Source: Planctomycetota bacterium | GTDB taxonomy: Bacteria > Planctomycetota > UBA1135 > UBA2386 | NCBI GenBank assembly: GCA_046290465.1 | Contig: JBKAGP010000001.1 | Location: 2,944,001 to 3,008,000 of the forward strand | DNA length: 64,000 nt | Direction: 5' to 3' | In this document: piece by piece, positions 26,841-56,027 of the stretch | Position numbering within the stretch: position 1 is the stretch's first letter | Layout: every line of letters starts with the position of its first letter | Position numbers and translations under genes: made by a program | The notes under the pieces: generated by a model | The model's database searches: none | What the model was told of the DNA's origin: nothing | The model's input: the letters and a program-made list of their open reading frames with translations, nothing else

Positions 26841-27143
26841 CTACTTGCGCTTTGCCGACTGCCCAGCGGCGTCCATTCCCGCAAGCAACTGCTCTACAGT
26901 TGTCGCATTGGGGTCAAGGCTGACGACGATATCGGCCGAACCAGGCTCGACCTCGATTCCCGACACGCCAGGGAGCTTGGTCACGGCACCACGCACGGTG
27001 GCGGCACAACCGCCTCAAGTCGGCGTCTTGTCCAGGACAAGGTGGACTTGGGTAGACGTGAGCTGAGAGTCGTGCTTGACCGTGCTGCAGCCAGCGAATG
27101 ACAGCGCGACGATGACTGCGCAGGCAATCCAGAGATGCTTCAT
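26841..27143 (-). CDS. Putative selenocysteine-containing HMA-domain lipoprotein (U43 in TPT-U-GGC)
   Basis: Lipobox FAGC at C19; in-frame TGA 27015-27017 followed by GGCAATVRGAVTKLPGVSGIEVEPGSADIVVSLDPNATTVEQLLAGMDAAG, an HMA-fold continuation; TAG at 26841; 100 aa with readthrough. Confidence 0.85.
26979..27011 (-). promoter_or_regulatory. SECIS-like hairpin after the in-frame UGA
   Basis: GGUUGUG-C-CGCCAC [CGUGC] GUGGUG-C-CGUGACC; the loop starts 17 nt after the UGA and has G at position 2. Confidence 0.7.
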
Positions 27144-39847: not shown

Positions 39848-41251
39848 ATGAAGACGACAGCACAACGTCGGTGGACGCGAGTCCGCGTCGGCAACGCCCT
39901 CTGTTGCCTCCTACCCACGATTGCCGCGTGCAGCATGCATCCACGCACGACGCCCATCGGTCCGTACACCAGCGCACCAGCCGGAATGCGCGCCGAACGG
40001 CCGCAACTGCCCGACTTCACAATCAACTCCGATCTCGATACCTACATCCGGTACGCGCTACTGAACAACCCCGGCTTGGAAGCCGCGTTCCAGGACTACA
40101 TCGCCGCGATGGAGCGCATCCCCCAGGTGACGGCGCTCCCGGATCCGAGGTTCAGCTACCGGTACTACATCCAGGAAGTCGAGACCCGCGTCGGTCCGCA
40201 ACAGCACGCGTTCGGCCTATCACAGACACTGCCTTGGTTCGGCAAACTCGAGTTGCAGGGCCAGATCGCCTCGGGCGCTGCAGGTGCCGCTAAGGAGAGG
40301 TTCGAGGCGAAGAAAGACTCGCTTGTCGCAGAGGTCATCGATGCCTACCTGGAGTACTACCATCTGGGGCGTGCCGTCGAAGTCGTCCGCGGCAACCGCG
40401 ACCTCATCCAGCAGCTTGAGCGAGTAGCCCGCGCCCGCTACGGGGCAGGAGCCGCCAACCACCCCGATATCATCCGCGCCCAGGTGGAACTCGGCCAGCT
40501 GGAGAACCAGCTGGCCAGCCTGGACGATCGCAAGTCGCCATTCATCGCACGATTGAACGCGGCGCTCAATCGACGCAAATCGACTCCGATCCCGTTCCCA
40601 AAGAAGGCCGACGTCCATCCGCTCGGGGCCCCCGACGAAGAGGTTCTCGGGTGGATTGCCACCAGCAACCCGGAGCTCATGGCGATGCGGCACGAAATCG
40701 ACGCCGCAAGGGCAGCCGCCCTGCGTGCCGAGAAGGACTTCTACCCCGACTTCACCTTCGGTGTCGATTACCTGGCCACCGGCGATGCTCGCATGCCTGG
40801 AGTGGCGGGCAGCGGCGACGATGCCGTCATTGCTGGCGTCTCTTTCAATCTTCCAATTGCACGCGGCAAGTACAACGCGGCCGTTCGTGAAGCCAAAGCC
40901 CGCCAGTTTTCGACGGCACTGAGACGAGGAGACCTGCTCAACAAGCTTCAGGCAGAAGCGGCGACTGCGCTGTTCCGCATCCGCGACGCAGAACGACAGA
41001 TTGCCTTGTATCGCGACACACTGCTTCCCAAGGCGCGCGAGTCGCTCGCGACCACTCAGACAGCCTACAGCGCGGGGAATGGAAGCTTCTCCGACCTGGT
41101 GGATGCGCAGCGGATGCTGCTGTCCTTCGAACTGTCATTCGAGCGATCCCGTGCCGACCACGGACAGTGGCGAGCGGTACTCGAGCGCCTCGTCGGCCAC
41201 GCGATCCCCACGAAGAGCGCGGACGTGAAATCGTCCGACAAGGAGAAGTAG
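39848..41251 (+). CDS. cusC: TolC-family outer membrane factor (CusC-like)
   Basis: ALLNNPGL, LPDP, QTLPWFGK, YPDFTFG, LERLVG; upstream of the adaptor and RND genes. Confidence 0.88.
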   Translation: MKTTAQRRWTRVRVGNALCCLLPTIAACSMHPRTTPIGPYTSAPAGMRAERPQLPDFTINSDLDTYIRYALLNNPGLEAAFQDYIAAMERIPQVTALPDPRFSYRYYIQEVETRVGPQQHAFGLSQTLPWFGKLELQGQIASGAAGAAKERFEAKKDSLVAEVIDAYLEYYHLGRAVEVVRGNRDLIQQLERVARARYGAGAANHPDIIRAQVELGQLENQLASLDDRKSPFIARLNAALNRRKSTPIPFPKKADVHPLGAPDEEVLGWIATSNPELMAMRHEIDAARAAALRAEKDFYPDFTFGVDYLATGDARMPGVAGSGDDAVIAGVSFNLPIARGKYNAAVREAKARQFSTALRRGDLLNKLQAEAATALFRIRDAERQIALYRDTLLPKARESLATTQTAYSAGNGSFSDLVDAQRMLLSFELSFERSRADHGQWRAVLERLVGHAIPTKSADVKSSDKEK

Positions 41252-41255
41252 CAAG

Positions 41256-43595
41256 ATGAACGTAAGCAAGACCACCCGTCTGACCGCGCTGCTCGTCGCC
41301 ACAACCATCGCCGGGCTCGGAGTCGGCTACCTCCTATGGGGTGATGCAACACCGCCCACGCACCCCGAGCACTCGACGACTACGCACGAAGGCCATGCCG
41401 CTGCAGCCGAAGTGTGGACCTGCTCCATGCACCCACAGATCCGCATGCCATCGCAGGGCAAGTGCCCCATCTGCGGGATGGATCTCATCCGGGCCTCGAG
41501 CGGCGGCGACTCGGGTGGGCTACGACAACTGACGATACGTCCGGAACAGCGAGCCCTCATGCGCGTTCGAACCGTCCCCGTCGAGCGACGCTTCCCCGAT
41601 GCAAGGGTGCGCCTCGTCGGCAAGGTGACCTACGACGAGACACGACTCGGCTACATCACCGCTTGGGTTCCAGGGAGAATCGACGAGCTCTACGTAGACT
41701 TCACCGGGGTCACCGTGCGCAAGGGTGACCACATGGTGAAGCTCTACAGCCCTGAGCTCTATCGCGCGCAGGAGGAGCTGCTACAGGCGCTAGCATCGCT
41801 TGGAGACCTGCAGAAGAGCGAGTTCGAATCACTGAGAGCCTCGGCTCAGGGCACCATCGACTCGGCACGAGAGAAGCTGCGCCTCTGGGGCCTCTCGAAG
41901 GAGCAGATCTCGGCAATCGAGAAACGGGGATCTGCCGAGGAGCACGTCACGATCCACGCACCTTCATCCGGCCTCGTCATCCACCGTAGTGCCCAGGAGG
42001 GCATGTACGTGCAGACGGGAACGCGCATCTTCACGATCGCGGACCTCAGTCACGTCTGGGTGCAACTGGACGCATACGAGAGCGACCTGGAGTGGCTTCG
42101 ATATGGTCAGCAGGTCTCGTTCGAGACCGAGGCCTACGGCGGACGACGGTTCAACGGCCGAATCTCCTTCATCGACCCCGTCCTCGACCGTCGCACACGC
42201 ACCGTCAAGGTCCGCGTGAACGTGCCGAATCCCGACGGCCTGCTCAAGCCAGACATGTTCGTGCACGCAACCGTCGCGGCCCGGATCGCTGGCGCTGGCA
42301 AGGTCATGGATCCATCCCTCGTCGGAAAGTGGATCTCCCCCATGCATCCCGAGATCGTGAAGGACGGCCCCGGCAAGTGCGACGTGTGCGGCATGGATCT
42401 CGTCCCTGCCCACGAACTCGGCTACGTCCCCGCAACTGAAGTTCAGGACGAAGCCCCGCTCGTTGTGCCGGTCTCCGCCACCTTGGTGACCGGAACGCGC
42501 GCCATCGTCTACGTCGAGCTCCCCGACCGAGAGACTCCGACCTACGAGGGTCGGGAGGTCGTGCTCGGACCGAGAGCCGGCGACCAGTACGTCGTCCTTC
42601 ACGGCCTCCAGGAAAACGAGCTCGTGGTGGCCGAAGGCAACTTCAAGATCGACAGCGCTCTCCAGTTGCAGGCCAGACCGAGCATGATGAGCCCTGCGGG
42701 CGGCCAGCCCGCGGGCGGCCACAACCACGGCGGCGGAGCCGGAACGAAGCCAGCAACGATGCCCTCGGGTCAGAGCCACGCTTCCATGCTCTCGGCGGGC
42801 GCGCGGACTCGACTGCAGCTGATCGAGCGGGTCTACGCTGACATCACCGCGTCCGTAGATGCAGGCGACCTCCACGAAGCAAAACAACGGTTCGAGCAAC
42901 TCGGCAAGGCCGTTGCCGAAACCCGGATGCAGCTGTTCGAGGGGGATTCCCACAAGATGTGGATGGAGCTGTCGATGCGCCTGTCGAACGACGCATTCGA
43001 AGGCAGTGCTTCGCCTGACACGTCGACCGCGAAGTCAAACCTCGGGAAGCTCACCACGTCGGTCGAGATGATGCGGAAGCACTTCCAAACGACGGCAGAA
43101 TCCCCGTCAGGTACGCCCGTCGAGTTGCCGGAGGAGGTGCGCTCAGCGCTTCGACGGAACTGGGAGGCTTACTCTGATCTGCATTCGGCCCTCGCAGCTG
43201 ACGATCTCAGCAAGGCCAAGTCGGCAGCGTCGAAGCTGGCCGCCGCAACCGACGGCGTTTCGTCGACGTCTCTACCAGCACCGGCGCAAGTCGCGTGGCA
43301 ATCGTTGACGAACGCAGTGGTCACGAGCGCGCGCCAGATTTCCGAGGGCGACGACATCGAAGGTGCGCGAGCGGCGTTCGAGCAAGTGTCCAAGGGTATT
43401 GAAACGGCACTCCGCGCACTCGGTTCGCCTGCGAAGGTCCGTGTCATGCATTGCCCAATGGCATTCGACGGCCGCGGCGCGCGTTGGTTGCAGGGTTCGG
43501 ACGAGGTGCAGAACCCCTACTACGGCGCCAAGATGCTGGATTGCGGCTCCGCCATCGAAACCCTCGAGCCTCGCGAGGACCTCCGTGGCAAGTGA
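41256..43595 (+). CDS. cusB: CusB-like RND adaptor with heavy-metal-binding and DUF3347-like domains
   Basis: WTCSMHP..CPICGMDL, SPMHP..CDVCGMDL, LYSPEL, LKPDMF, C-terminal HCPMA..WLQ..NPYYGAKMLDCG. Confidence 0.9.
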   Translation: MNVSKTTRLTALLVATTIAGLGVGYLLWGDATPPTHPEHSTTTHEGHAAAAEVWTCSMHPQIRMPSQGKCPICGMDLIRASSGGDSGGLRQLTIRPEQRALMRVRTVPVERRFPDARVRLVGKVTYDETRLGYITAWVPGRIDELYVDFTGVTVRKGDHMVKLYSPELYRAQEELLQALASLGDLQKSEFESLRASAQGTIDSAREKLRLWGLSKEQISAIEKRGSAEEHVTIHAPSSGLVIHRSAQEGMYVQTGTRIFTIADLSHVWVQLDAYESDLEWLRYGQQVSFETEAYGGRRFNGRISFIDPVLDRRTRTVKVRVNVPNPDGLLKPDMFVHATVAARIAGAGKVMDPSLVGKWISPMHPEIVKDGPGKCDVCGMDLVPAHELGYVPATEVQDEAPLVVPVSATLVTGTRAIVYVELPDRETPTYEGREVVLGPRAGDQYVVLHGLQENELVVAEGNFKIDSALQLQARPSMMSPAGGQPAGGHNHGGGAGTKPATMPSGQSHASMLSAGARTRLQLIERVYADITASVDAGDLHEAKQRFEQLGKAVAETRMQLFEGDSHKMWMELSMRLSNDAFEGSASPDTSTAKSNLGKLTTSVEMMRKHFQTTAESPSGTPVELPEEVRSALRRNWEAYSDLHSALAADDLSKAKSAASKLAAATDGVSSTSLPAPAQVAWQSLTNAVVTSARQISEGDDIEGARAAFEQVSKGIETALRALGSPAKVRVMHCPMAFDGRGARWLQGSDEVQNPYYGAKMLDCGSAIETLEPREDLRGK

Positions 43596-46500
43596 TCTCA
43601 CCAACGAACCGAAGTCGTTCCTGGACCGCCTGATCTGGTTCTGCCTACGGAAGAAGCTGATCGTCTTCCTCCTTGTGCTCGGCGTCATGGGATGGGGTGC
43701 GCTCGTCGCCCCGTTCGATTGGAAAGCAGGTGGCTTGCCACGCGATCCGGTTCCGGTCGACGCCATCCCCGACATCGGTGAGAACCAGCAGATCGTATTC
43801 ACCGAGTGGATGGGGCGATCGCCACAAGACGTCGAGGACCAGATCACCTACCCGCTCACCGTCGCGCTGCTCGGGCTGCCCGGTGTCAAGACGGTACGCA
43901 GTTACTCGTTCTTCGGCTTCTCGACCGTTTACATCATCTTCGATGAGGACATCGACTTCTACTGGAGCAGAAGCCGCGTCCTCGAGAAGCTCAACAGCCT
44001 GCCGAGAGGCACCTTGCCCGCGGACGTCCAGCCAGCGCTCGGACCGGACGCCACGGCACTGGGTCAGGTCTACTGGTACACACTCGAGGGGCGCGACCCC
44101 GACGGCAACCCCACTGGAGGATGGGGGCCACAGGAGTTGCGCAGTGTGCAGGACTGGTATGTCCGCTACACGCTGCTTGCTGCAGAAGGCGTAAGCGAGG
44201 TCGCCTCCATCGGTGGATTCGTCGAGGAATACCAGATCGACGTCGATCCGGACGCCATGCGGGCACACGGCGTCACGCTGGATCAGGTCTTCGCGGCAAC
44301 GAAGATGTCGAACCTCGACGTCGGCGCTCGCACGATCGAGGTCAGCCGAGCCGAGTATGTGATCCGCGGCCTTGGCTTCGTCAAGAACGTCGAGGACATC
44401 GAGGAGACCGTCGTACGTGTCAACGACAACGTGCCGATCCGCGTCCGCGATGTCGGCCATGTCACCAAGGGGCCCGCCCTGCGTCGAGGGGCGTTGGACA
44501 AGGGCGGCGCAGAAGCCGTTGGCGGTGTCGTTGTGGTCCGTTACGGCTTCAACCCGCTTCAGGCGATCAAGAACACCAAGGCGAAGATCGCGGAGATCGC
44601 CCCTGGACTGCCGACGAAGGCAATCGCTGACTTCACGGCAACGTCGAAAGACGCGCTACGCGGCTTCGCAGCCCTACAGGGGTTCGAGGCGTTCGATGGT
44701 GACGACCTCAACCAAGCGGCCTGGGTGCCGTTCTTGAGATCCAATGAGAAGTCGGCATGGCCTACCGGCGTGAACCTCAGCCAGGTGACCATCGTCCCGT
44801 TCTATGACCGAACGGACCTCATCTACGAGACTCTCGGCACGCTCAACTCAGCGCTCGTCGAGGAGATCCTCGTGACGATGATCGTGATGCTCATCATGGT
44901 GCTTCACCTGAGGAGCTCCTTGCTCATCAGCGCTTTGCTCCCAGTCGCCGTACTGATGTGCTTCATCGCCATGCGAACGTTCGGGGTCGCGGCGAACATC
45001 GTCGCGCTTTCGGGTATTGCAATCGCCATCGGCACGATGGTCGACATGGGCGTAATCATCTGTGAGAACGTCCTGCGCCACCTCAGGGAAGCGGATCCCG
45101 ACACACCTCCCATCGAGACGATCTTCCGTGCTACACGCGAGGTTGGCAGCGCCGTCATCACCTCCGTCGCGACGACCGTCGTCAGCTTCTTGCCCGTATT
45201 CACGATGACGGGCGCCGAAGGCAAGCTCTTCCAACCACTCGCCTTCACCAAGACGTTCGCCCTGGTTGCATCGATCATCGTCGCACTGACGGTGATCCCA
45301 CCGGCGGCCCACATCCTGTTCACGGGCTCGATTCGCTCGACGCGCACCAAGGCTCTCATGCATGCGGGGCTTGCCGCCGCAGGACTCGTCGTAGCTATCA
45401 CAACAAGCATCGTCGGAGGGAGTCTGCTCCTGGCATTTGCGGCATTCCAACTCCTCAAGAGCAGGATCCCGCGCTGGACCGGTAACTCGGGGCCGATCGT
45501 CGTCAGCCTGGCTGTTGCGCTATTCGTTCTGATCGAACTAACGCAATCGTGGCTACCGCTCGGTCCCAGTCGCGGGTTCCTCAAGAACCTGGCATTCGTC
45601 GGGGTTCTGATCGGCGGACTGCTAGGAACGTTCCTCGCCTTCCAACGCGTTTATCCGCGCGTCCTGCGATGGTGCCTGCGACACAAGCTCCTGTTCCTGT
45701 CGGCGCCAACCCTCATCGTCGCTCTCGGCGCCTGCTCCTGGTTCGGTTTCGATCGCGTCTTCGGCTTTGCGCCCGAGTTCATGCGACAGAGTGCACCCTG
45801 GCAACGGATGGCGAGCGTGTTCCCGGGGCTCGGCAAGGAGTTCATGCCACCACTGGACGAGGGCTCCTACCTGTTCATGCCGACGACACTCCCCCATGCG
45901 TCGATCGGTGAGTCCATGGAGGTCCTGCAGTATCAGGACACCTCCATCGCCAGGATACCGGAGGTCGAGTCAGTCGTCGGGAAGCTGGGTCGAGCTGAAA
46001 CTCCTCTTGACCCAGCCCCGATCTCGATGATCGAGACGGTCATCAACTATCGGCCCGAATACATCACCGATAAAGACGGAGACCGCATCAGCTTCCGCTT
46101 CGACGAGGAAACGGGCGAGTTTGCGAGAAACGAAGAAGGCGACCTGATCCCCGACACGAACGGACGCCCGTTCCGACAGTGGCGCGATCACATCAAATCT
46201 CCCGACGACATCTGGGACGAGATCGTCGCGGCATCCGAGATACCCGGCACGACATCTGCCCCGAAACTGCAGCCGATCGCGGCGCGCATCGTCATGTTGC
46301 AAAGCGGCATGCGAGCGCCGATGGGCATCAAGGTGAAAGGGCCCGATCTCGCTACGATCGAGGAGGTCGCCGTGCAGCTGGAGCGCTACCTGAAGCAGGT
46401 CCCAGGCGTATCCGCTCCGACGGTGACCGCCGACCGCCTGGTTGGCAAGCCCTACCTCGAGATCGAGCTCAACCGCAAGGCGCTCGGCAGGTATGGCCTC

Positions 46501-47505
46501 CATGTCGGCTCGGTGCAACAGGTCATCGAGGTAGCCATCGGCGGTAAGCGAATCACCACGACGGTCGAGGGTCGTGAGCGGTACCCGGTACGCGTCCGGT
46601 ATCTGCGGGAGTTGCGCGACACGCCCGAGAGCCTCGGAGAGATCCTTGTTCCCACTCCGACCGGCGCGCAGGTCCCGCTCTCTGAGCTCTCGGAGATTCG
46701 CTTCGTTCGCGGACCACAGGCCATCAAGAGTGAAGACACGTTCCTCATCGGCTACGTGGTTTTCGACAAGCAAGCGGACAGCGCAGAAGTCGACGTTGTT
46801 GAAGAATGCCAGGCGTTCCTACAGCAGAAGCTCGACTCCGGCGAGTTCGTACTGCCCGCCGGCGTGAGCTACAGCTTCTCCGGAAGCTACGAGAACCAAA
46901 TCCGATCCCAAAAGACGCTTGCGCTGGTCTTGCCCGTCGCGCTGTTCGTCATCTTCCTGATCCTCTACCTCCAGTTCGGTTCGGTCTCGACCTCGCTGCT
47001 GGTGTTTTCGGGCATCGTGGTCGCATGGGCAGGAGGCTTCCTCCTTATCTGGATGTACGGCATCGGAGGCTTCCTCGACATCGACCTGTTCGGCGAGAAT
47101 CTGCGCGCCCTCTTCCAGGTCGACACCATCAACCTGAGCGTCGCCATCTGGGTCGGATTCCTGGCCCTATTCGGCATCGCGTCAGACGACGGCGTCGTGA
47201 TGGCGACCTACCTCGAACAGAGTTTCCGCGGAGCACATCCGCGGTCTCGCGAAGACATACACAACTTGGTCGTGGAGGGAGCCAAGAAGCGTATCCGCCC
47301 CGCGCTCATGACGAGCGCGACGACGATCCTCGCACTCATCCCGGTCCTGACCTCGACGGGCCGCGGGTCCGACATCATGGTCCCGATGGCCATCCCTTCT
47401 TTCGGTGGGATGCTGATCGCCATGCTCACGGTATTCGTCGTACCCGTGCTCTACTGCACCATCAAGGAGCGGCGGCTCGGTAGCCAGCACACGACGACGG
47501 GCTGA
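43585..47505 (+). CDS. cusA: CusA-family Cu/Ag RND permease
   Basis: VDAIPDIGENQQI, LGPDATALG, EFMPPLDEG, MIET, MLQSGMRAPMG, RIRPALMT; GTG start overlapping cusB. Confidence 0.94.
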   Translation: MASDLTNEPKSFLDRLIWFCLRKKLIVFLLVLGVMGWGALVAPFDWKAGGLPRDPVPVDAIPDIGENQQIVFTEWMGRSPQDVEDQITYPLTVALLGLPGVKTVRSYSFFGFSTVYIIFDEDIDFYWSRSRVLEKLNSLPRGTLPADVQPALGPDATALGQVYWYTLEGRDPDGNPTGGWGPQELRSVQDWYVRYTLLAAEGVSEVASIGGFVEEYQIDVDPDAMRAHGVTLDQVFAATKMSNLDVGARTIEVSRAEYVIRGLGFVKNVEDIEETVVRVNDNVPIRVRDVGHVTKGPALRRGALDKGGAEAVGGVVVVRYGFNPLQAIKNTKAKIAEIAPGLPTKAIADFTATSKDALRGFAALQGFEAFDGDDLNQAAWVPFLRSNEKSAWPTGVNLSQVTIVPFYDRTDLIYETLGTLNSALVEEILVTMIVMLIMVLHLRSSLLISALLPVAVLMCFIAMRTFGVAANIVALSGIAIAIGTMVDMGVIICENVLRHLREADPDTPPIETIFRATREVGSAVITSVATTVVSFLPVFTMTGAEGKLFQPLAFTKTFALVASIIVALTVIPPAAHILFTGSIRSTRTKALMHAGLAAAGLVVAITTSIVGGSLLLAFAAFQLLKSRIPRWTGNSGPIVVSLAVALFVLIELTQSWLPLGPSRGFLKNLAFVGVLIGGLLGTFLAFQRVYPRVLRWCLRHKLLFLSAPTLIVALGACSWFGFDRVFGFAPEFMRQSAPWQRMASVFPGLGKEFMPPLDEGSYLFMPTTLPHASIGESMEVLQYQDTSIARIPEVESVVGKLGRAETPLDPAPISMIETVINYRPEYITDKDGDRISFRFDEETGEFARNEEGDLIPDTNGRPFRQWRDHIKSPDDIWDEIVAASEIPGTTSAPKLQPIAARIVMLQSGMRAPMGIKVKGPDLATIEEVAVQLERYLKQVPGVSAPTVTADRLVGKPYLEIELNRKALGRYGLHVGSVQQVIEVAIGGKRITTTVEGRERYPVRVRYLRELRDTPESLGEILVPTPTGAQVPLSELSEIRFVRGPQAIKSEDTFLIGYVVFDKQADSAEVDVVEECQAFLQQKLDSGEFVLPAGVSYSFSGSYENQIRSQKTLALVLPVALFVIFLILYLQFGSVSTSLLVFSGIVVAWAGGFLLIWMYGIGGFLDIDLFGENLRALFQVDTINLSVAIWVGFLALFGIASDDGVVMATYLEQSFRGAHPRSREDIHNLVVEGAKKRIRPALMTSATTILALIPVLTSTGRGSDIMVPMAIPSFGGMLIAMLTVFVVPVLYCTIKERRLGSQHTTTG

Positions 47506-47562
47506 TGAATCGAAACCGAGACGCTAACCGCGACGTGGGAAGCGTCACGGCTGCAGCTGAGC

Positions 47563-47587
47563 GCCAACGCCACGTCGTGGCGTTGGC
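47563..47587. terminator. Hairpin between convergent genes
   Basis: GCCAACGCCAC-GTC-GTGGCGTTGGC; no clear U-tract. Confidence 0.45.
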
Positions 47588-47640
47588 CTTGCATTGGCCC
47601 GCAGCCAGCGCCCGGGGCCCGATCGTCTAGCCGACCCAGC

Positions 47641-48264
47641 TCAGAGCTTCTTCTCGGCCTTGATGCCTGGTTTGGCAGCCTTCTTCGCCGCCGGTTTCTT
47701 CTCGACCAAGGCGAAGGAGCTCACCTTGAACTTCGTGTCTGCAAGTGCCTTGACGACAGCCTCGCGAGTGAGCGAGCCCTTCTTCATGGCTACGGTCACG
47801 GCCTTGGCCTTGAGGTCGACTTCGACGCTATTCACACCCGCGATCTTGGCGAGGGTCTCACGGACCCCCGAGGCGCAACCGCCTCAAGTCATTCCCGTCA
47901 CGCCCACGACGTAGACGCCCTTCGGAGTCATGCGCGTAGCCTTGACCGACGCGAAGGAGCTCACCTTGAACTTGGTGTCCACGAGCGCCTTGACGACAGC
48001 TTCGCGCGTCAGCCCCCCCTTCTTCATGGCTACGGTCGCGGTCTTGGCTTTGAGGTCGATCTCGACGCTCTTCACGCCTGCGATCTTGGCGAGGGTCTCA
48101 CGGACCCCCGAGGCGCAACCGCCTCAGGTCATCCCCGTCACGCCGACGACGTATGTGGCCGGGGTAGTCGACTTCGCCGCAGGAACGTTCTTGGTCTCCT
48201 GAGCGATTGCTTGGACGCCTCCAAAGACGACTCCGCATAGCAGTGCGAGCACGGTGGTTCTCAT
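47641..48264 (-). CDS. Putative exported tandem-HMA selenoprotein with two Sec (U47, U127; GMT-U-GGC twice)
   Basis: GAGAGGA RBS, signal peptide MRTTVLALLCGVVFGGVQAIA; in-frame TGA at 48124-48126 and 47884-47886, each within YVVGVTGMT*GGCASGVRETLAKIAGV.SVE.DL; 207 aa with readthrough. Confidence 0.9.
47850..47870 (-). promoter_or_regulatory. SECIS-like hairpin after the second UGA
   Basis: CGGGGGUC [CGUGA] GACCCUCG; the loop starts 21 nt after the UGA. Confidence 0.72.
48090..48110 (-). promoter_or_regulatory. SECIS-like hairpin after the first UGA
   Basis: Identical CGGGGGUC [CGUGA] GACCCUCG at the same spacing. Confidence 0.72.
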
Positions 48265-48798
48265 ATGTCCTCTCATGGATCTCTCTCGACTGGGCTAGGC
48301 GGATGCACGGCCGAGATAACGCGAAAGCGCCTCACCCTGACAACCAGGTGCCGCTCAGGAAATCCACCTGAAGGAGTCCCAGGGGCCGCAATGTAGGCGA
48401 AACTCATCCGAGCGCAACGGCCGCAGGCGCGGAGCTAGCCTCACGCCGGCCACTTGATCGCCGCTGGTTCGGCATGACGAACGACTTCTCCCCCGAATGA
48501 TCCCGCTCGCCAAGTGTGGTCTGTGCCAGTTTAGGGCCATCCGCGATCTAGCGCTGGAACGAGACGCCCTTCGACTGCCTCCCCGCAAGCGCCACGTCTG
48601 CCTCTGGGCTCCAACATCCGGCCCGAAGAGGGCCGAAAGCGCATTCTCGTCGTCATGGGCGCGGCGCATGAGGTACGAGGGAGCTCCTCGCGATCGCTGA
48701 TGGTCAGCTCAGAAGCGCGTAAATCCCGATCCCAAGGGGCCTTGACCCGCCCTCGGACCACCTCCTGGTGACTTCCCACGAGAGTTTCATTCAGCAAC

Positions 48799-48839
48799 TT
48801 GCCCTGCGCGGTCGATTCATCATATACTGAAATGATGAA
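48799..48839 (+). promoter_or_regulatory. Sigma-70-type promoter with an overlapping ArsR/SmtB-type operator
   Basis: TTGCCC-N18-TATACT; inverted repeat TTCATCAT-N8-ATGATGAA (48816-48839) covers the -10 box and the start codon. Confidence 0.7.
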
Positions 48840-49230
48840 CGATACGCCGAAGTCGAAGAGCCCCAAGGCCCGCGAGGGGGCCTGCGAGATCAACCAGGTC
48901 GATTGCTCGATGGTCTCGGAAGCTCAGGCGTCGCTTCCCGCAACCACAGAGCTCCAACGAGTCGCTGACGCCTTTCGAGTCCTCGCGAACCCGAACCGGT
49001 TGCGCGTACTGAAGGCCCTTCAGGGTCGGGAGCTGTGTGTCTGCGACCTCCGTGAAGTGCTCGGGATCTCCATGTCCGGCACCTCGCAGGTCCTCCGAGA
49101 GCTGCGCAACCTCGGAGCAGTTGAGTTCCGCGCCGAAGGCAAGCTCGCCTACTACCGGCTAGCCGACTCGTCATGGCTCGACATTGCCGAGAGCGTGCTT
49201 GAGAAGTTCGTGGGTGCCGAAGCGAGATAG
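48835..49230 (+). CDS. ArsR/SmtB-family metal-sensing repressor (CadC-like)
   Basis: FRVLANPNRLRVL, ELCVCDL, EGKLAYYRL, N-terminal Cys (GACE); start 48832 or 48835. Confidence 0.93.
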   Translation: MNDTPKSKSPKAREGACEINQVDCSMVSEAQASLPATTELQRVADAFRVLANPNRLRVLKALQGRELCVCDLREVLGISMSGTSQVLRELRNLGAVEFRAEGKLAYYRLADSSWLDIAESVLEKFVGAEAR

Positions 49231-49270
49231 CGCTCGCCCGTTTTTCGCGACGAGGGAGAGAACGATTGTG

Positions 49271-50872
49271 ATGTCTACCAACAAACGAGGAAGGTCTTGG
49301 TTTCTTGCCGGCATGCTCGCCTTGAGCGTTGCCCTTTCCGGTTGTGGGCAGGAGCCCTCTCCTGGTCCTGGTTCCGAACCTGCTGCAGGTGAATCGACCG
49401 CGACTGGCAGGAATCCGACGAGCACCGCACACAAGCACGACACACCCGGCGAGACGTGCTTCATCTGTGATCCAAGCAAGCGTGAGTCAGGACGCCTGTG
49501 GTGCAAGGAGCACGGCCGTTACGAGAATCGATGCTGGATGTGCCAGCCGCAGCTCGAGGAGAAGGGCCGCCTCTACTGCGAAGAGCACGGCCTCTACGAG
49601 GACGAGTGCTTTCTCTGCCATCCCGAGCTGAAGAAAGACTCCAAGGACGAGAAGCAGCCGAAGGACAAGAAGGGCGCGCAACTGGATGCTCCCCCCCGCA
49701 CTGTTCCAGGTCTTTTCTGTAAGGAACACGGGGTGCCGGAGGCGGATTGCGGCATCTGCCAACCACAACGCACGGCAGAACTGCAGCCAGGCGACGAACT
49801 CAAGGTGCGTTTCGAGTCGGCCCGTGCAGCTGCGAAGGCAGGTGTGCAGACAGTTCCCGCCCGCCAGGCCACGGTGCGGGAAAGCGTTCCGGCCATCTGC
49901 GAGATCTCCTACAACCAGAATGCTCTGGCCCGCATCACGCCACTGGCCGCGGGGATCGTGCGCAAAGTGCTCGTCGATGTCGGTGCGGACGTGAAGGCGG
50001 GAGATGTTCTGGTGGAAGTGCACTCCACCGAAGTAGCGAGCGCGAAGGCTGCGTTCGTCTCGTCCGTGGTCGACCTCGACCTGAAAGAGGTTGCCTGCAA
50101 GCGAGAGAAGCGCCTGGCGAAGAAGAGCATCTCTTCGGAGAAGGAGGTGCAGGAGGCCGATGCTGCGTGCAAGACCGCTGAGCTCACGCTGAGTACAGCA
50201 AGACAGAGACTCCTCAACTATGGCTTCACGGCGGATGAGGTTGCAGCGATCAAGAAGGATCGCGACACCTCAGCTCGCTTGTTGGTCCGCGCTCCATACG
50301 AGGGCACATTGGTCGAGAGAAGTGCGGTGGTCGGCGAAGCTGTTGAGCCAGGCAAGAGCGTATTCTCTCTCGCGGATCTCGGCTCGATGTGGCTCTCGCT
50401 CTCGATCCCTGCCGATCGCGCGGGTCTCATCAAGAGTGGTCTGAGCGTGGAGGCGACCTTCCACGGCCTTTCCAGCGAGGCGTCACGTGGTGAGATCACA
50501 TGGGTCAACACCTCGATCGACGAGAAGACTCGCATGCTGCGGGCACGTGCCGTGGTCGGCAACCCTGACCGGAAGCTCAGCGCAGGGATGTTCGGCGACG
50601 CGATCGTCTTCACTTCGGATGCCAGAAGCGCAGTGGATGTGCCCAAGGAAGCCATCCAGCGGTTCGAGAAGAAGCTCTACGTCTTCGTCAAACTCGAAGA
50701 CGACCTCTACTCGTTGCGTCGCGTCGCCACGGTCGAGCGACCGTCGAACAACATCGTTGCGGTGGTCGAAGGTCTGCGCGCGGACGAACCTGTTGTTGCT
50801 ACAGGAGCATTCACCGTGATGTCCGAGTTCCTCAAGTCGAGGCTCGGCGCTGGCTGTGTCGATGACAAGTGA
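49271..50872 (+). CDS. czcB: CzcB-like RND adaptor lipoprotein with N-terminal Cys/His repeats
   Basis: LSGC lipobox; three C-x2-H-x6-C-x2-C repeats; membrane-fusion core (VRAPYEGTLVE, LADLGSMW, LSAGMF). Confidence 0.88.
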   Translation: MSTNKRGRSWFLAGMLALSVALSGCGQEPSPGPGSEPAAGESTATGRNPTSTAHKHDTPGETCFICDPSKRESGRLWCKEHGRYENRCWMCQPQLEEKGRLYCEEHGLYEDECFLCHPELKKDSKDEKQPKDKKGAQLDAPPRTVPGLFCKEHGVPEADCGICQPQRTAELQPGDELKVRFESARAAAKAGVQTVPARQATVRESVPAICEISYNQNALARITPLAAGIVRKVLVDVGADVKAGDVLVEVHSTEVASAKAAFVSSVVDLDLKEVACKREKRLAKKSISSEKEVQEADAACKTAELTLSTARQRLLNYGFTADEVAAIKKDRDTSARLLVRAPYEGTLVERSAVVGEAVEPGKSVFSLADLGSMWLSLSIPADRAGLIKSGLSVEATFHGLSSEASRGEITWVNTSIDEKTRMLRARAVVGNPDRKLSAGMFGDAIVFTSDARSAVDVPKEAIQRFEKKLYVFVKLEDDLYSLRRVATVERPSNNIVAVVEGLRADEPVVATGAFTVMSEFLKSRLGAGCVDDK

Positions 50873-53800
50873 ACGGGGACTCCATGCTTGAGCGCCTCGT
50901 CGAGTTCTCACTTCGCAACCGCCTCCTGTTCTTGCTGCTGGGATTTGCCCTGGTCGGCGGCGGGATCTACACGGCAACGCGTACGCCAGTTGACGCCTTC
51001 CCGGACACAACACCCGTCCAGGTCCAGATCAACACCGTGGCCCCCGCGCTCAATCCGGAAGAGATTGAGCAGCAGCTCACCCTTCCAGTCGAGCTCTCGA
51101 TCGGCGGTCTTCCTGGTCTGGCCGATGTTCGTTCCATATCCAAGTTTGGACTGTCCCAGGTCGTCGCGACGTTCGATGACGACACGAGGATCATCGATGC
51201 GCGCCAGTACGTCTCCGAACGACTGGCGACAGTAGAGCTTCCCGAAGGCATTGAGCGTCCGCAGCTCGGCCCCATCTCCACCGGGCTCGGAGAGATCTTC
51301 CACTACGTCCTTCGTTCGGAGAACCCGCGCAGGACGCTCGAAGAGCTGCGAACCCTTCACGACTGGGTCGTCAAACCGGAGCTCCGCAAGGTTCCTGGTG
51401 TCGCTGAGGTCAACTCGTGGGGCGGGTACGAGAAGCAGTACCACGTGGTTGTCTCGCCCGAGGCGTTGCTCAAATACGACCTCACCCTTGGGGACGTCTT
51501 CGAAGCGCTCGAGAAAAACAATCAGAACGTCGGTGGTGGCGTGCTCACGTCGGGTGGGCAGTCGCAGCTCGTGCATGGCCTCGGGCGTGTTTCAACCGTC
51601 AACCAGATCGAGAACATCGTTGTCTCCGCATTCGACGGTGCGCCGATCCGCATTCGAGATGTCGCGCAAGAGGTTCGGGTCGACCACGAGATCCGGCGCG
51701 GTGCGGTCACGGCGAACGGTCGCGGCGAAGTCGTGCTAGGCCTTGCTTTCATGCTGATGGGCGAGAACGCCCAGGCCGTCACCGAAGAGCTCAAGGAGCG
51801 GCTCGTAGGTGTCCGGAGATCGCTCCCCGAAGACGTTGTCGTTGAAGTCGTCTACGACCGCACCGAGCTGACAACCGAGGTGATCGGAACCGTGCAGCAC
51901 AACCTGTTGGCCGGAGCCTTGCTCGTCATCGTCGTGCTCTTCGTACTGCTTGGCAACATTCGCGGCGGTCTCCTGGTAGCCCTCGCCATCCCACTCGCGA
52001 TGTTGTTTGCCTTGATCGGCATGTACCACTTCGCGATCGCGGCAAGCCTCCTCAGCCTTGGTGCAATCGACTTCGGCATCATCGTCGACGGCTCGGTGGT
52101 GATGACCGAGGCCAACATGCGGAACCTGGCTCAGCGTGCGCGTGAGCTGAAGAGACCGCTGACCAAAGATGAGCGTCTCGCGGTCATCACCGAGTCGGGC
52201 AAGCAGGTGGCTCGACCGATCGTCTTCGGCATGGCCATCATCATGGTGGTCTTCTTCCCCGTGCTCGCGCTCGAGGGAATCGAAGGAAAGATGTTCCGCC
52301 CGATGGCGTGGACGTTCATCTTCGCCCTTGGCGGGGCACTGCTGATCGCCCTCACCCTGTCACCGGTCCTTGGCTACTACTTCCTTCCGAAGCGTGTTCG
52401 GGAGCGAGAGGGTGTTATCGCTCGCGCGATGAACGGCGCCTTTGCCTGGTTCCTTGCGGCAGCGATGCGGCTGCGGTGGTTCGTTCTCAGCGGAGCGATG
52501 CTGCTTCTAGTGTTCGCCGGATGGACTGCGACACGGCTGGGAGGAGAGTTCATCCCGCGCTTGAGCGAGGGGGCGGTGGTCTTGAACACCATCCGCCTGG
52601 CCGGTGTCTCTATTGAGGAGTCCGTTCGCTACAACACGCGCATCGAGAAGCTCTTGCTCGAGAACTTTCCGGACGAGGTTCGGCACGTCTGGAGCCGCAT
52701 CGGGACAGCTGAAATCGCCACTGACCCCATGGGCACCGAGCTGACCGACATCTTCTTGTCGCTCAAGCCCCGAAGCGAATGGAAGAGGGCCAGCACGCAG
52801 ACTGAGCTCGGCGCTGCCATGCAGAGCCTGGTGGACGACCTACCCGGCGTGAACATCATCGCAACCCAGCCGATCGAGATGCGCCTCAACGAGATGGCGT
52901 CGGGCATCCGTTCAGACATCGGCATCAAGATCTACGGCGACGACTTCGACGAGCTCGTGCGCATCAGTGACGAGGTACAGCGCATTCTTGTCGACATCCC
53001 CGGACAGTCAGACGTCGCTGTCGATCAGGTCACGGGGCAACCAACGCTCCGCATCCGCATGGACCCCGACGCACTTGCCCGCGTTGGAGTGTCAGGACGG
53101 GAAGTGCTCGAGTTCGTGGAGGTCATCGGGACACGCCGTGTCGGCGAAGTCTTCGAGGGACAACGTAAGTTCCCGTTGGCTGTCCGGTTGCCGGATTCCC
53201 ACCGGGGCGATGCCGACGCTCTACGTGCGACGCTGATTCCAACGAAATCTGGGCTTCGCCTACCTCTGCGAAGCGTGGCTGACGTCTCAGAAGAAGAGGG
53301 CATCTCGACGATCAACCGTGAGTGGGGTCGAAGGCTGATCCGCGTCCAGTGCAACGTAGCCGGCCGCGATGTTGCCTCGTTTGTTGAGGAAGCGCAGACG
53401 CGGATCGCCAACGAACTGGAGCTCCCCGATGGCTACGTCATCAACTGGGGCGGTCAGTTTGAGAATCTGGCCAACGCGAAGGTGCGGTTCATGATCGTTG
53501 TTCCGGTCACGCTCCTTCTCGTGTTCTTCCTGCTGTTCTTCAGCCTGAAGAGTCTTCGGGAGGTCCTGCTGATCTATACCGGGATTCCCTTCGCCGCTGT
53601 CGGAGGTGTCTTGGCGCTCTGGCTGCGCGGAATGCCGTTCAGCGTGAGCGCCGCCGTGGGCTTCATCGCGCTCGGAGGCATCGCCGTCTTGAACGGACAG
53701 ATCCTCGTATCGGCCATTCGCTCTTTCCTTGCTCAGGGCAACGAGCTCCGTTCGGCGATCACAGAAGCCACACAGCAACGGCTTCGTCCCGTTCTGGCGA

Positions 53801-53997
53801 CGGCTATCACGGATGCTGTCGGTTTTCTTCCGATGGCGATCTCCACGGGAGTCGGTGCCGAGGTGCAGCGACCACTTGCGACGGTTGTGGTGGCAGGTGT
53901 GCTGACGTCAACCGTCCTGACTCTCTTTGTGCTGCCGATCCTCTACCTGCTTGTCATGAAGAAGGTCCCAGCAACAACCGACGGGGAGGTTGCGTAG
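50869..53997 (+). CDS. czcA: CzcA-family heavy-metal RND permease
   Basis: VDAFPDTTPVQVQINT, GPISTGLGEI, LGAIDFGIIVDG, EFIPRLSEG, GAEVQRPLATVV. Confidence 0.95.
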   Translation: MNGDSMLERLVEFSLRNRLLFLLLGFALVGGGIYTATRTPVDAFPDTTPVQVQINTVAPALNPEEIEQQLTLPVELSIGGLPGLADVRSISKFGLSQVVATFDDDTRIIDARQYVSERLATVELPEGIERPQLGPISTGLGEIFHYVLRSENPRRTLEELRTLHDWVVKPELRKVPGVAEVNSWGGYEKQYHVVVSPEALLKYDLTLGDVFEALEKNNQNVGGGVLTSGGQSQLVHGLGRVSTVNQIENIVVSAFDGAPIRIRDVAQEVRVDHEIRRGAVTANGRGEVVLGLAFMLMGENAQAVTEELKERLVGVRRSLPEDVVVEVVYDRTELTTEVIGTVQHNLLAGALLVIVVLFVLLGNIRGGLLVALAIPLAMLFALIGMYHFAIAASLLSLGAIDFGIIVDGSVVMTEANMRNLAQRARELKRPLTKDERLAVITESGKQVARPIVFGMAIIMVVFFPVLALEGIEGKMFRPMAWTFIFALGGALLIALTLSPVLGYYFLPKRVREREGVIARAMNGAFAWFLAAAMRLRWFVLSGAMLLLVFAGWTATRLGGEFIPRLSEGAVVLNTIRLAGVSIEESVRYNTRIEKLLLENFPDEVRHVWSRIGTAEIATDPMGTELTDIFLSLKPRSEWKRASTQTELGAAMQSLVDDLPGVNIIATQPIEMRLNEMASGIRSDIGIKIYGDDFDELVRISDEVQRILVDIPGQSDVAVDQVTGQPTLRIRMDPDALARVGVSGREVLEFVEVIGTRRVGEVFEGQRKFPLAVRLPDSHRGDADALRATLIPTKSGLRLPLRSVADVSEEEGISTINREWGRRLIRVQCNVAGRDVASFVEEAQTRIANELELPDGYVINWGGQFENLANAKVRFMIVVPVTLLLVFFLLFFSLKSLREVLLIYTGIPFAAVGGVLALWLRGMPFSVSAAVGFIALGGIAVLNGQILVSAIRSFLAQGNELRSAITEATQQRLRPVLATAITDAVGFLPMAISTGVGAEVQRPLATVVVAGVLTSTVLTLFVLPILYLLVMKKVPATTDGEVA

Positions 53998-53998
53998 C

Positions 53999-55408
53999 AT
54001 GGCAACAACTACCAGATTGGAGACTGGGCGGCTCCGTCGGCAAACGCTCGTGGCCGCTGCTGTGGCGCTGCTAGTCACCTTGAGCGGATGTGCCACTGTA
54101 GACCCAACGCCGGATTACGAACTAGCGCGAGAGGAGGTAAAGGCAGCGACCGGCGAAGACACCCTCTATCAGCCCGGAGAGGAAGAGCGTGCGCGCAAGC
54201 TGGTTGCAGAGCTCATGAAGGATGGGTTGACCTCAAAGGACGCAGTCCAGATTTGCCTTCTCAACAATCGACTTCTGCAGCAACAGCTCTACGAGATCGG
54301 TGTGCGGCGTGCGGATGCAGTGCAGGCTGGATTGCTCTCGAACCCGTCGCTCCAACTGATGGTGCGCTTCCCACTCGATGGAGGAAGCACGAACATGGAG
54401 GGCGGACTTCTCCACAATCTCATCGAGCTCTGGCACTTGCCCGCGCGCACGAGGGTTGCGGAAAGCCAAGTAGACCGAACCGTGCTCGAGGTTGCTCGCC
54501 GCGCGGTCACGCTCGCGGCTCAGGCGAAGTCGGCGTACTTCACGGCCGTTGCTTCGAGTGCTTCTCTCGCTGTTGCAGAAGAGAATCTCAAGACCGCACA
54601 GGAGTTCCTCGAACTCACGCGTGAACGCAAGGCTGCCGGTGCTGCGACGCAGGTTGACGAGAACGCCGCGCGCGCCGGTTTCCTCGAGCAACAGGTGCTT
54701 GTTCGTTCCACAAGCTTCGCTTCGTTTGAAGCGAAACGACGCCTGGCGATGGTGCTGGGTGTTTCCGTACCGCCGCAGGAACTTGAGCTCACGAGTCCAC
54801 CACTCACGCCACCGGAGTGGAGCGTTGACCTCAAGAGACTGCTCGCAGTTGCCGAAGAACACCGGCTTGACCTGCGCGCGGCGAAGAAGGCCGTCGAGGC
54901 CGCAGGCAACGCAGTGCCTCTTGAGCGGCGTCGGCAGCTGCGCAAGCTAGGTGGTGGCTTGGCCTTCGAAACGGTCGGCAGCGATGTAGAACTGGGTCCA
55001 GCATTCCGGCTTGAGATTCCGATCTTCGACCGAAACCAAGCACAGATTGCCAAGGCCGAGTTGCGCTTCTCTCAGGCGATACGTCGCCTTGAGGGAGTGT
55101 CCGAGAACGTGTCCCAACAAGTACGGGGTGCGTACGAACGCTACGCGATGGCGCAGGAAACCGCTCGCCTCTACCAGAAGGAGCTCTTGCCGCTTCAACA
55201 AGCCAGCCTTGACCTTGCCCGAGAGTCGTTCGCGGCAGGCAAGACAGGCTTTCTATCTGTCCTCGAGGCTCAGAACCGACTTCTTGCCACTCGGCGTGAC
55301 TATGTCGTACGGCTTGAGTCTGTGGCCCAGAGCATCCCCGAGCTGGAGGCTGCTTGTGGGCGACCGCTCGACGTGCTCCTTGCTACGGATGCGGATCGTG
55401 ACAAGTGA
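53999..55408 (+). CDS. czcC: TolC-family outer membrane factor (CzcC-like)
   Basis: LSGC lipobox, AGLLSNP, HRLDL, EIPIFDRNQ, LEAACG. Confidence 0.88.
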   Translation: MATTTRLETGRLRRQTLVAAAVALLVTLSGCATVDPTPDYELAREEVKAATGEDTLYQPGEEERARKLVAELMKDGLTSKDAVQICLLNNRLLQQQLYEIGVRRADAVQAGLLSNPSLQLMVRFPLDGGSTNMEGGLLHNLIELWHLPARTRVAESQVDRTVLEVARRAVTLAAQAKSAYFTAVASSASLAVAEENLKTAQEFLELTRERKAAGAATQVDENAARAGFLEQQVLVRSTSFASFEAKRRLAMVLGVSVPPQELELTSPPLTPPEWSVDLKRLLAVAEEHRLDLRAAKKAVEAAGNAVPLERRRQLRKLGGGLAFETVGSDVELGPAFRLEIPIFDRNQAQIAKAELRFSQAIRRLEGVSENVSQQVRGAYERYAMAQETARLYQKELLPLQQASLDLARESFAAGKTGFLSVLEAQNRLLATRRDYVVRLESVAQSIPELEAACGRPLDVLLATDADRDK

Positions 55409-56027
55409 TCAGGCGCGGACAGCAACGCTCATGCGCGCAGCGAGCCTCGCCTACCTGACAATCGGCTGGAATGTCGTCGAGGGTGTCATCGCCGTTTCCG
55501 CAGCGGCTGCTGCTGGGAGTGTCGCGCTGCTCGGCTTTGGCCTTGATAGCTTCGTAGAGAGCGCCTCTGGTTTGATCGTTCTGTGGAGACTCTCTCGAGA
55601 ACGGCGCAACACGGCCGTTGCGGCGGAAGCTGTCGAGAAGCTCGACCGCCGGGCGCATCGCCTGGTGGCCGGCACCTTGTTTCTCCTTGCTGCCTACGTC
55701 TCCGTGGATGCTGGATTCGCGCTGTGGAACGGGGATCGCCCTGAGACGAGCGTCGTCGGGATCATTCTTGTCTCAGTCTCGATCGCAGTCATGTGGTGGC
55801 TAGCGCGTGCAAAATCGTCCGTGGCACGTGTTCTGGGGAGCCGAGCGCTTGAAGCCGACTCCTTTCAGACCCTGGCATGCTGGTGGCTTTCGATCGTCGC
55901 CCTGTCAGGGATTGTTCTCAACGCCGCGTTCGGTTGGTGGTGGGCAGACCCTCTTGCGGCCCTAGGGGTCGCAGCCCTTGTTGTTCGCGAGGGTACCGAA
56001 GCTTGGCGTGGTGAGGCGTGCTGCTGA
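55389..56027 (+). CDS. CDF-related cation transporter lacking the C-terminal domain
   Basis: WNVVEG, GSVALLGFGLDSFVES, ALEADS, WWWADP; ends EACC; start 55389 or 55398. Confidence 0.85.
   Translation: MRIVTSDQARTATLMRAASLAYLTIGWNVVEGVIAVSAAAAAGSVALLGFGLDSFVESASGLIVLWRLSRERRNTAVAAEAVEKLDRRAHRLVAGTLFLLAAYVSVDAGFALWNGDRPETSVVGIILVSVSIAVMWWLARAKSSVARVLGSRALEADSFQTLACWWLSIVALSGIVLNAAFGWWWADPLAALGVAALVVREGTEAWRGEACC

Follow-up and report, generated by a model that had tools for sequence, protein, structure and literature searches.

The gene analysed here lies on the minus strand of a 64,000-nucleotide stretch of the genome of Planctomycetota bacterium (GenBank assembly GCA_046290465.1, contig JBKAGP010000001.1), which we refer to as the window, and it appears to encode an exported protein with two selenocysteine (Sec, U) residues, each in the metal loop of its own heavy-metal-associated (HMA) domain. 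Standard open reading frame (ORF) calling yields two fragments here, at 47641..47835 (64 aa) and 47884..48075 (63 aa), both on the minus strand. When TGA is read through, the region from 48264 to 47641 becomes a single frame of 207 sense codons closed by a terminal TGA, comprising in encoded order a hydrophobic N-terminus, two HMA domains and a Lys-rich tail. An earlier note on this DNA had suggested that the fragments conceal such a frame, beginning at 48264 and running through two HMA repeats with a TGA at the first Cys of the GMTCxxC motif in each, and this is borne out, save that the start may lie slightly further upstream. A second in-frame ATG at 48276 (MRGH-MRTT...) is kept by the ortholog from the same genus (G011; the host is G000), in which both ATGs are present, and because of this conservation the start is placed at either 48276 or 48264, four codons apart.

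All parts of the gene given here are on the minus strand. The N-terminal segment (48202..48264) reads MRTTVLALLCGVVFGGVQAIA followed by QE; in translation it resembles a signal peptide, ends in AIA and has no lipobox, and an AxA-type cleavage site is inferred from its sequence. The first HMA domain (residues 37-107; 47944..48156) and the second (residues 116-187; 47704..47919) are each supported by Pfam PF00403, by AlphaFold2 (AF2) and by Foldseek, and the first is laid out as beta-alpha-beta-beta-alpha-beta. The two candidate Sec codons, UGA-1 (codon 47; 48124..48126) and UGA-2 (codon 127; 47884..47886), both sit within VTGMT-U-GG-C, where U takes the place of the first Cys in the canonical metal loop of HMA domains (GMT-C-x-x-C), and in homologs both positions hold TGA or Cys. 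The C-terminal tail (47644..47703) is Lys-rich and predicted to be disordered, with low AF2 confidence, and similar tails are found in homologs. The terminal UGA (47641..47643) is a true stop without a SECIS-type (CGUG-loop) hairpin (SECIS, selenocysteine insertion sequence), as is also the case for the terminal TGAs of two homologous loci (L023 and L024).

Each internal TGA is followed by the hairpin CGGGGGUC-CGUGA-GACCCUCG (SECIS-1, 48090..48110; SECIS-2, identical in sequence, 47850..47870), which starts 13 nt past the TGA, has a stem of 7-8 bp and presents its loop 21 nt past the UGA. The structure folds as had been proposed for the 44 nt downstream of each TGA, and the two 57-nt stretches reach minimum free energies of -26.6 and -25.8 kcal/mol (z about -2.15 against shuffles). 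The bSECISearch program is said to work with a UGA-to-loop distance window of about 16-37 nt. A conserved G of the bacterial SECIS is given in a figure legend of PMC1794560. In the first 12 genomes compared, every candidate Sec codon has a hairpin with a CGUG(A/C/G) loop that begins 18-27 nt past the UGA. When all loci were read, a stem of at least 6 bp was present at 37 of 42 candidate Sec sites (46 flagged U sites minus two terminal stops and two outside the gene) and a (C)GUG loop in the expected window at 34 of 42, against 6 and 1 respectively of the 27 Cys sites of HMA homologs that served as a control.

The stem also covaries. An alignment of 19 sites from 12 genomes (A2; 25 columns, with CGTG as anchor, which was reset manually in three rows) has a 7-bp stem in which 93.8% of cells are paired, a figure that drops to 32-49% if the 3' partner is shifted by 1-3 columns, and compensatory change on both sides is seen in 6 of the 7 stem pairs. 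Its covariation score of 0.724 compares with 0.324 in shuffles and was reached by none of 500 shuffles. For searching we relied upon a covariance model, R2, made from 16 sites in ten other genomes with G000 and G011 excluded, and did not use model R1 for support because R1 includes the window's own sites and would be circular. Applied without filtering to the two strands of the 64-kb window, R2 returned exactly the two sites of the tandem gene (28.5 bits, E 2.6e-5), and the next-best match scored 13.7 bits (E 0.31). Over 25 further loci there were 19 matches at E<=0.015, all in Sec-form genes on which the model had not been trained, among them three matches 237 nt apart in a three-domain gene. 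Nothing was found at E<=0.5 in four Cys-form loci (L025, L053, L054 and L059), and a fifth (L072) gave a weak match of 14.5 bits (E 0.24). R2 likewise found nothing at E<=0.5 in L018, L043-L045, L049, L060, L065 and L075, where the hairpins differ or fall below threshold.

The reading frame of the loop is informative in its own right. The loop of the tandem family, CGU-GA(G), encodes the Arg-Glu of a conserved VRETL, and in the single-domain HMA selenoproteins of the host a CGUGC loop is read in a different frame, (AC)C-GUG-C(GU); that the same loop occurs in different reading frames points to selection on the RNA rather than on the protein. In Rfam, 47000-49000 matched no SECIS and no other relevant family at E<=10, and the three matches obtained were at chance level. 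Hairpins that have a CGUGN loop and an upstream in-frame TGA were counted genome-wide (27 of 542 at >=6 bp); their number was not above rough expectation, and the count serves for candidate-finding only.

The host is equipped to decode such codons. Its 6.59-Mb genome, assembled as one contig, contains a tRNA-Sec gene (selC; 72.8 bits against a gathering score of 47, with anticodon tca according to ARAGORN) and also selA, selB and selD, which score 453, 354 and 352 bits and each exceed the curated cut-off, so that the full set which the earlier note had named as a check is present. The selD gene has an in-frame TGA of its own (SSAG-U-AAKL), after which comes a hairpin whose loop is CGGGC, and the gene adjoins selA (G000:C1:1309619-1311945 (-); L018, L009).

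Homologs of the read-through protein occur in 23 of 60 relatives from the same genus, family and order (24 of 61 including the host), several with exactly two in-frame TGAs, and in 47 of 301 genomes of a Planctomycetota sample at E<=1e-6; a match that holds TGA was found in 23 of the sampled genomes besides the host (of 300 others). Thirty-three loci (14 + 19) were translated with read-through, and across these U is always at the metal-loop position, the motif of the closest subfamily being GMT-U-x(2-3)-C. The number of Sec domains varies: one in G011, G216, G070 and G141, one accompanied by two degenerate domains in G179, two in G000, G048, G040, G339, G183 and G265, and three in G249. More distant exported relatives have U without a Cys partner (GIGG-U..., GLG-U..., GGG-U-SANKKVRETL) or have U-x-x-U or U-x-x-x-U. 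Cys forms were found in G042, G112, G150, G285 and G149, and the Cys of G042 sits in the TGA columns of an alignment (A3). Homologs across Planctomycetota thus keep the TGA and its hairpin at this site, and Cys forms align at the TGA column, which answers two questions that the earlier note had raised. The selA gene is present in 23 of 23 TGA-form genomes, compared with 221 of 301 in the whole sample, a co-occurrence which we treat as a consistency check and not as a statistical test because the genomes are related; six genomes with Cys-form matches only (G079, G130, G174, G283, G285 and G308) fall outside the selA holders. Past the first U, G048 and G040 differ by 10 synonymous and 4 non-synonymous changes. 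A single-protein search for related loci also turned up a record, 100% identical, that comes from a near-identical Planctomycetota genome and does not count as independent evidence; the remaining 79 loci were ordinary Cys-type HMA proteins matched through their GMTCGGC-type pattern and were set aside.

Some of these homologs have features of their own. The G249 gene (L048:1429-2193 (+)) has three domains with three in-frame TGAs, at GMT-U-GVSC, GMT-U-GVGC and GMK-U-AQSC. Two Sec in one loop are found in L060 (G289; GAT-U-AT-U-G, a UxxU) and in L065 (G240; GMT-U-GVT-U, a UxxxU, with several domains in a row).

Within the host gene, the two 240-nt units are 88% identical, and codon differences between domains 1 and 2 number 14 synonymous and 7 non-synonymous. 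The longest perfect run between them is 47 nt, namely the TGA and the 44 nt that follow it; the earlier note had reported the identity of those 44 nt and four flanking codon differences (GGG/GGA, ACC/ACT, GCA/GCG and GGC/GGT), and all four are indeed synonymous. In a tree of domains, the two host domains and that of G011 are separated by no more than 0.07 substitutions per site, with the second host domain and that of G011 forming a pair (support 95/85), and the three G249 domains group together, as do the two of G183. The domains cluster by genome, and therefore units of domain, UGA and SECIS have been duplicated repeatedly and independently; in the host, the two Sec sites would have arisen by duplication of an 80-codon unit that carried its own UGA and SECIS. 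The repeat also has a practical consequence. Public short-read contigs break at the 47-nt run (window 47840-47886 and 48080-48126), and since those from DNA break there just as those from RNA do, we regard this as an effect of assembly. Tandem Sec-HMA genes may accordingly be collapsed or split in draft assemblies, and the one-domain form of G011 may represent either a genuine deletion or a collapse of the assembly over the 47 nt that the repeats have in common.

The protein belongs to the HMA family by sequence and by predicted fold. Pfam PF00403 matches it twice (E 4.3e-23, 81.9 bits against a gathering threshold of 24.8), the domains scoring 38.4 and 38.2 bits in the genome search. AF2, run with a 13-row alignment, gave two domains with strand-helix-strand-strand-helix-strand order and per-residue confidence (pLDDT) above 90, whilst the N-terminus and tail are disordered (residues 1-32 below 50); the mean pLDDT is 78.5 and the predicted TM-score 0.44. 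U47 and U127 directly precede helices 48-59 and 128-139 and hence lie in the beta1-alpha1 loop of the model. The best Foldseek matches (E 6e-9 to 1e-6) are tandem HMA pairs, from ATP7B (7si6, 2ew9, 2rop) and Bacillus subtilis CopA (2rml, 1p6t), followed by the single domains of MerP (1osd), Atx1 (1cc7) and CopZ (6ff2). The protein shares two consecutive beta-alpha-beta-beta-alpha-beta domains with CopA (1p6t, 2rml) and ATP7B (2ew9, 7si6), but the domains of those pumps, like CopZ and Atx1, are cytoplasmic and Cys-only, and are either fused to a pump or, as in CopZ, single, unlike the exported Sec tandem.

Comparison with NCBIfam families places the protein near several of them and inside none, as no NCBIfam selenoprotein model reaches its cut-off for the tandem protein or for the four other HMA-like selenoproteins of the host. 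The CopZ models NF047957, NF033795 and NF033794 give 84.2, 82.2 and 70.9 bits against cut-offs of 85, 91 and 95, but these are two-domain sums, and a single domain scores 46.9-48.7 bits with NF047957; CopZ is moreover a small cytoplasmic single-domain protein, and the tandem protein instead has a signal-peptide-like N-terminus. The MerP model TIGR02052 gives 58 bits against a cut-off of 92.55. MerP is similar in being an exported HMA protein with a GMTCxxC-type loop, and differs in having one domain where there are two here; of the 51 window ORFs, the 34 scanned with Pfam included no mer genes (of the MerA or MerT family). Features in common with NF041115 (UxxU_metal_bind) are a small domain of HMA type whose metal loop contains Sec, a total of two Sec residues per protein and a predicted heavy-metal role; with this model, whose cut-off is 95 bits, the tandem protein as a whole reaches 70.7 bits and its single domains 38.7-39.7. 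The two Sec of NF041115, however, fall in the U-x-x-U of a single domain, whereas the motif here is U-G-G-C, with one U-x-x-C per domain, a SECIS for each and a signal peptide. NCBIfam also includes NF045683, a MerT/CopZ fusion-like selenoprotein that shares the HMA type and the link to heavy metals; it gives 53.2 bits against a cut-off of 375, the match being confined to its C-terminal CopZ-like part, and the protein here has no MerT membrane domain. In the selenoprotein P-type ATPase, the UxxC is found in the N-terminal HMA domain of the pump. Sec there likewise replaces the first Cys of CxxC, but the site belongs to a cytoplasmic P1B-ATPase and here to a free exported protein.

The gene stands in an island of metal-efflux genes. 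On one side are a CopA-like ATPase with an HMBD domain (28213-30501, -), a multicopper oxidase (32227-34326, +), a sigma-54 two-component pair (35341-38557, -) and a set made up of an outer-membrane efflux protein (OEP), a CusB-like adaptor with an HMBD domain and a resistance-nodulation-division (RND) pump of the CusA/CzcA family (39848-47505, +). On the other are a divergent ArsR/SmtB regulator (48799-49227, +; Pfam HTH_5, and NF033788 at 74.9 bits against a cut-off of 55), a second set of adaptor, RND pump and OEP (49184-55408, +), a cation diffusion facilitator (55011-56027, +), a ZntA-like ATPase (56054-58468, -) and a third RND pump (58938-62180, -). The regulator carries an ELCVCDL motif, which we take to be typical of As(III)/Cd-type ArsR sensors, and is inferred to control the tandem HMA gene (47641-48264, -). 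The earlier note had described the flanking operons as Cus-type and Czc-type, and this holds at the family level only, both RND pumps reaching TIGR00914 (CusA/CzcA); the adaptor before the tandem gene has CusB-like and HMBD domains, and the one after it is CzcB/NccB-like but below cut-off. Between the convergent RND gene and the tandem gene lies a GC-rich inverted repeat (47562..47588), a weak match to model R1, which is possibly a bidirectional terminator. No operator was evident in 48240-48860, where there are two weak palindromes only, and the tandem gene shows no convincing sigma-70 promoter on the minus strand and no T-tract terminator.

The same genome offers further candidate selenoproteins. 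All five PF00403 matches in it at E<=0.01 are Sec forms, and at least seven Sec codons lie in five genes of this kind. Besides the tandem gene, one lies in the window (26844-27143, -), where a hidden 100-aa lipoprotein-like HMA selenoprotein has a lipobox-like FAGC, the motif TPT-U-GG-C and a Pfam HMA match at E 1.2e-9; its TGA is followed by a CGUGC-loop hairpin in a different frame, and the gene adjoins a TRASH-like ORF, the CopA-like ATPase and the multicopper oxidase. Two more lipoprotein-like HMA selenoproteins, L044:1363-1671 (+) and L045:1483-1767 (-), near 3.251 and 3.217 Mb of G000:C1, have the motifs VPD-U-ASCC and ISP-U-LQC, and the hairpin CGCCAC-CGUGC-GUGGCG occurs in both genes. 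Another exported tandem protein with two Sec (L046:178-768 (+), that is G000:C1:1515877-1516467; GIGG-U-SAAG..., GLG-U-GGTAIETRD) has no Cys partner and no Pfam or NCBIfam match above cut-off; the SECIS of its second domain is matched by R2, and orthologs with two TGAs occur in G036, G018, G281 and G311. Candidate Sec codons with an open frame on both sides were also seen near G000:C1 1298630 (-), in a rhodanese-like active-site loop (H-U-GSGGRS), and near G000:C1 3141743 (+), in ...HPLGCT-U-NNGVIDR.... Elsewhere in the window (17208-20992, +), a gene for HamA (PF08878) and, after it, one for a DEAD/Helicase_C protein together have the look of Hachiman-type anti-phage defence.

Taking these data together, we think it very probable that both in-frame UGAs are decoded as Sec. 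Each would be read by means of a SECIS within the coding sequence, whose CGUGA apical loop lies 21 nt past the UGA and which would recruit SelB carrying Sec-tRNA(Sec). Export by the Sec pathway and cleavage of the signal peptide would leave a mature protein of two HMA domains of the CopZ/MerP/Atx1 type with a Lys-rich tail, in which a selenolate-thiolate pair (U47/C50 and U127/C130) would be placed at the beta1-alpha1 loop of each domain. Such a protein may bind or buffer thiophilic metal ions in the periplasm, either serving the neighbouring heavy-metal efflux systems or acting beside them. We deduce a soft-metal role from the HMA fold, the metal-loop motif and the position in a metal-efflux island with a divergent ArsR/SmtB gene, and a periplasmic binding or buffering function in the manner of MerP, CopZ or the non-homologous CusF seems to us fairly likely; the preferred ligands would most likely be Cu(I) or Ag(I), with Hg(II), Cd(II) and Pb(II) possible. 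As a whole, an intact gene for an exported two-selenocysteine protein that binds soft metals in the periplasm is the best explanation of the locus, and we hold it to be likely. Of the carrier that the earlier note had envisaged (periplasmic, two-Sec and CopZ/MerP-like, between efflux operons), the Sec reading is hence well supported and the metal-carrier role is a deduction, and the efflux-operon context is not conserved outside the genus.

Several observations weigh against this explanation or temper its support. The invariance of the loop in A2 is partly there by construction because the rows were anchored on CGTG, an effect from which the stem covariation and the leave-out model are free, and the rows behind the SECIS, TGA and selA counts come from related genomes and are not independent. 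The 47-nt identity within the gene is only modestly beyond chance (p about 0.03), a run of 47 nt or longer arising in 3.4% of 100,000 simulations in which 23 mismatches were placed randomly in 200 nt, and recent duplication could explain it; the strong evidence for the SECIS comes from other genomes. Past the first U, G000 and G011 differ by 10 synonymous and 10 non-synonymous changes, so that purifying selection is not clear between them. Many members of the family have U-x-x-x-C or a Cys-less U, which is not a canonical metal site and leaves room for other chemistry. The genomic context is also less constant than the host locus suggests. G000 and G011 are alike only over the gene and about 165 nt upstream and about 80 nt downstream of it, with no shared flanks, although the G011 ortholog is about 850 nt from a multicopper oxidase gene; the homologs of G040 and G339 are among unrelated genes, so that the metal-gene neighbourhood is not conserved outside the genus. 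Adjacency to an RND pump is seen in G000 and not in G011, G040 or G339, and no recurrent metal-efflux partner emerged on Pfam from 23 ORFs flanking 11 homolog loci, many of them possibly spurious in this high-GC DNA, or from 24 ORFs of three longer loci.

Evidence for expression is similarly qualified, since RNA libraries may contain DNA and their contigs are thus weak support. One RNA-library contig (48017-48239) has zero differences and spans UGA-1, and two other libraries gave contigs at 47599-47861 and 47612-47842, whose ends at 47599 and 47612 are a weak hint of a terminator. A contig of a variant strain (47915-48345) differs at 16 positions and carries a 3-nt insertion, with UGA-1 and the hairpin unchanged. 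The contigs of three RNA runs fall within 47599-48345 and none was seen on 47400-47575 or 48368-48700, where the DNA run covers everything, but gaps in the coverage of RNA runs prove nothing.

The alternative that survives best also takes the gene to encode a genuine exported double selenoprotein, and assigns its U-x-x-C pairs to redox or chalcogen chemistry in place of metal carriage, as would be the case for a periplasmic selenol/thiol oxidoreductase or for a protein that carries or scavenges species of selenium, sulfur or arsenic. The catalogued UxxC selenoproteins are mostly oxidoreductases (PMC2398784), and the many relatives with U-x-x-x-C or no Cys partner, atypical of HMA metal sites, the loss of metal-gene context in G040 and G339 and the motif of the neighbouring regulator would all suit such a function. 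However, the fold and the GMT-C-x-x-C loop are those of a metal-binding HMA domain, the top structural matches are without exception metal chaperones or metal-binding domains of ATPases, and the gene is beside metal-handling genes in both genomes of the genus, and we therefore consider redox chemistry an unlikely contender. It is much harder to argue that the locus is a decaying pseudogene in which two nonsense mutations struck equivalent positions of a duplicated HMA gene. Public gene calls do split the locus into pieces of 46-64 aa with no full-length entry, but dozens of sites throughout the phylum have TGA at one and the same column, a covarying hairpin follows each TGA, the frame downstream is kept and selA accompanies the TGA form in all 23 genomes of the sample, all of which makes decay very improbable. 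That the TGAs are true stops and the fragments at 47884..48075 and 47641..47835 separate small proteins is scarcely credible, since, whilst both are open from a GTG and called as genes in public collections, they would start inside helix alpha-1 without strand beta-1 or the metal loop and have no signal peptide of their own, and the HMA fold is completed by the sequence ahead of each TGA, which is itself conserved as coding.

With the exported two-Sec metal binder thus preferred, it remains to consider how new it is. The earlier note overrated the novelty of the exported two-Sec architecture, as HMA-type selenoproteins are already in print and tandems with several Sec are common in the phylum. 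A table of the Global Ocean Sampling selenoproteome has a row for a selenoprotein 'Mercuric transport protein MerP' (PMC2398784), a Sec form predicted there from metagenomes, the UxxC P-type ATPase is in published selenoprotein lists (PMC2398784; PMC13188914), and a table in a 2026 review includes NF041115 (UxxU, two Sec; 'putative mercuric reductase') and MbdU (CU, two Sec) (PMC13188914). A term search of that review gave no entry matching an exported tandem Sec-HMA family under PF00403, HMA, periplasmic, metallochaperone or UxxxC (PMC13188914), and Table S9 of a study of planctomycete selenoproteins names no HMA protein (PMC4807772). A search of open-access full text for selenoprotein with HMA or heavy-metal-associated gave nothing relevant, survey supplements with sequences being outside its scope, and public protein collections hold fragments of 46-64 aa only ('hypothetical'), with no full-length form of 114-364 aa at E<=1e-8. 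The family is thus widespread in Planctomycetota yet uncatalogued, and is a variant within the known HMA-type selenoproteins. Given that no NCBIfam model reaches its cut-off, annotation pipelines will keep missing it; it occurs in at least 23 of the 300 other sampled Planctomycetota genomes.

Whilst no new category is opened by this gene, HMA-type selenoproteins having been included in published surveys, it gives a clear example from nature of a bacterial mRNA with several Sec codons, every one of which has its own in-frame SECIS, brought about by repeated duplication of a domain. It also places Sec in the position of Cys as a putative metal ligand in an exported protein, and so offers a tractable setting for the study of what a selenolate contributes to metal binding in an oxidising compartment. 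A stop at UGA-2 would release a complete one-domain protein and therefore, speculatively, the supply of selenium could set the ratio of one- to two-domain product. That Planctomycetota more widely practise selenium-based soft-metal buffering outside the cytoplasm, by way of duplicated Sec-HMA cassettes with one to three Sec and a product ratio set by selenium supply, is a broader idea which we think doubtful at present. If it were true, the choice between termination and insertion at the later UGAs would couple the selenium status of these bacteria to their capacity for metal buffering.

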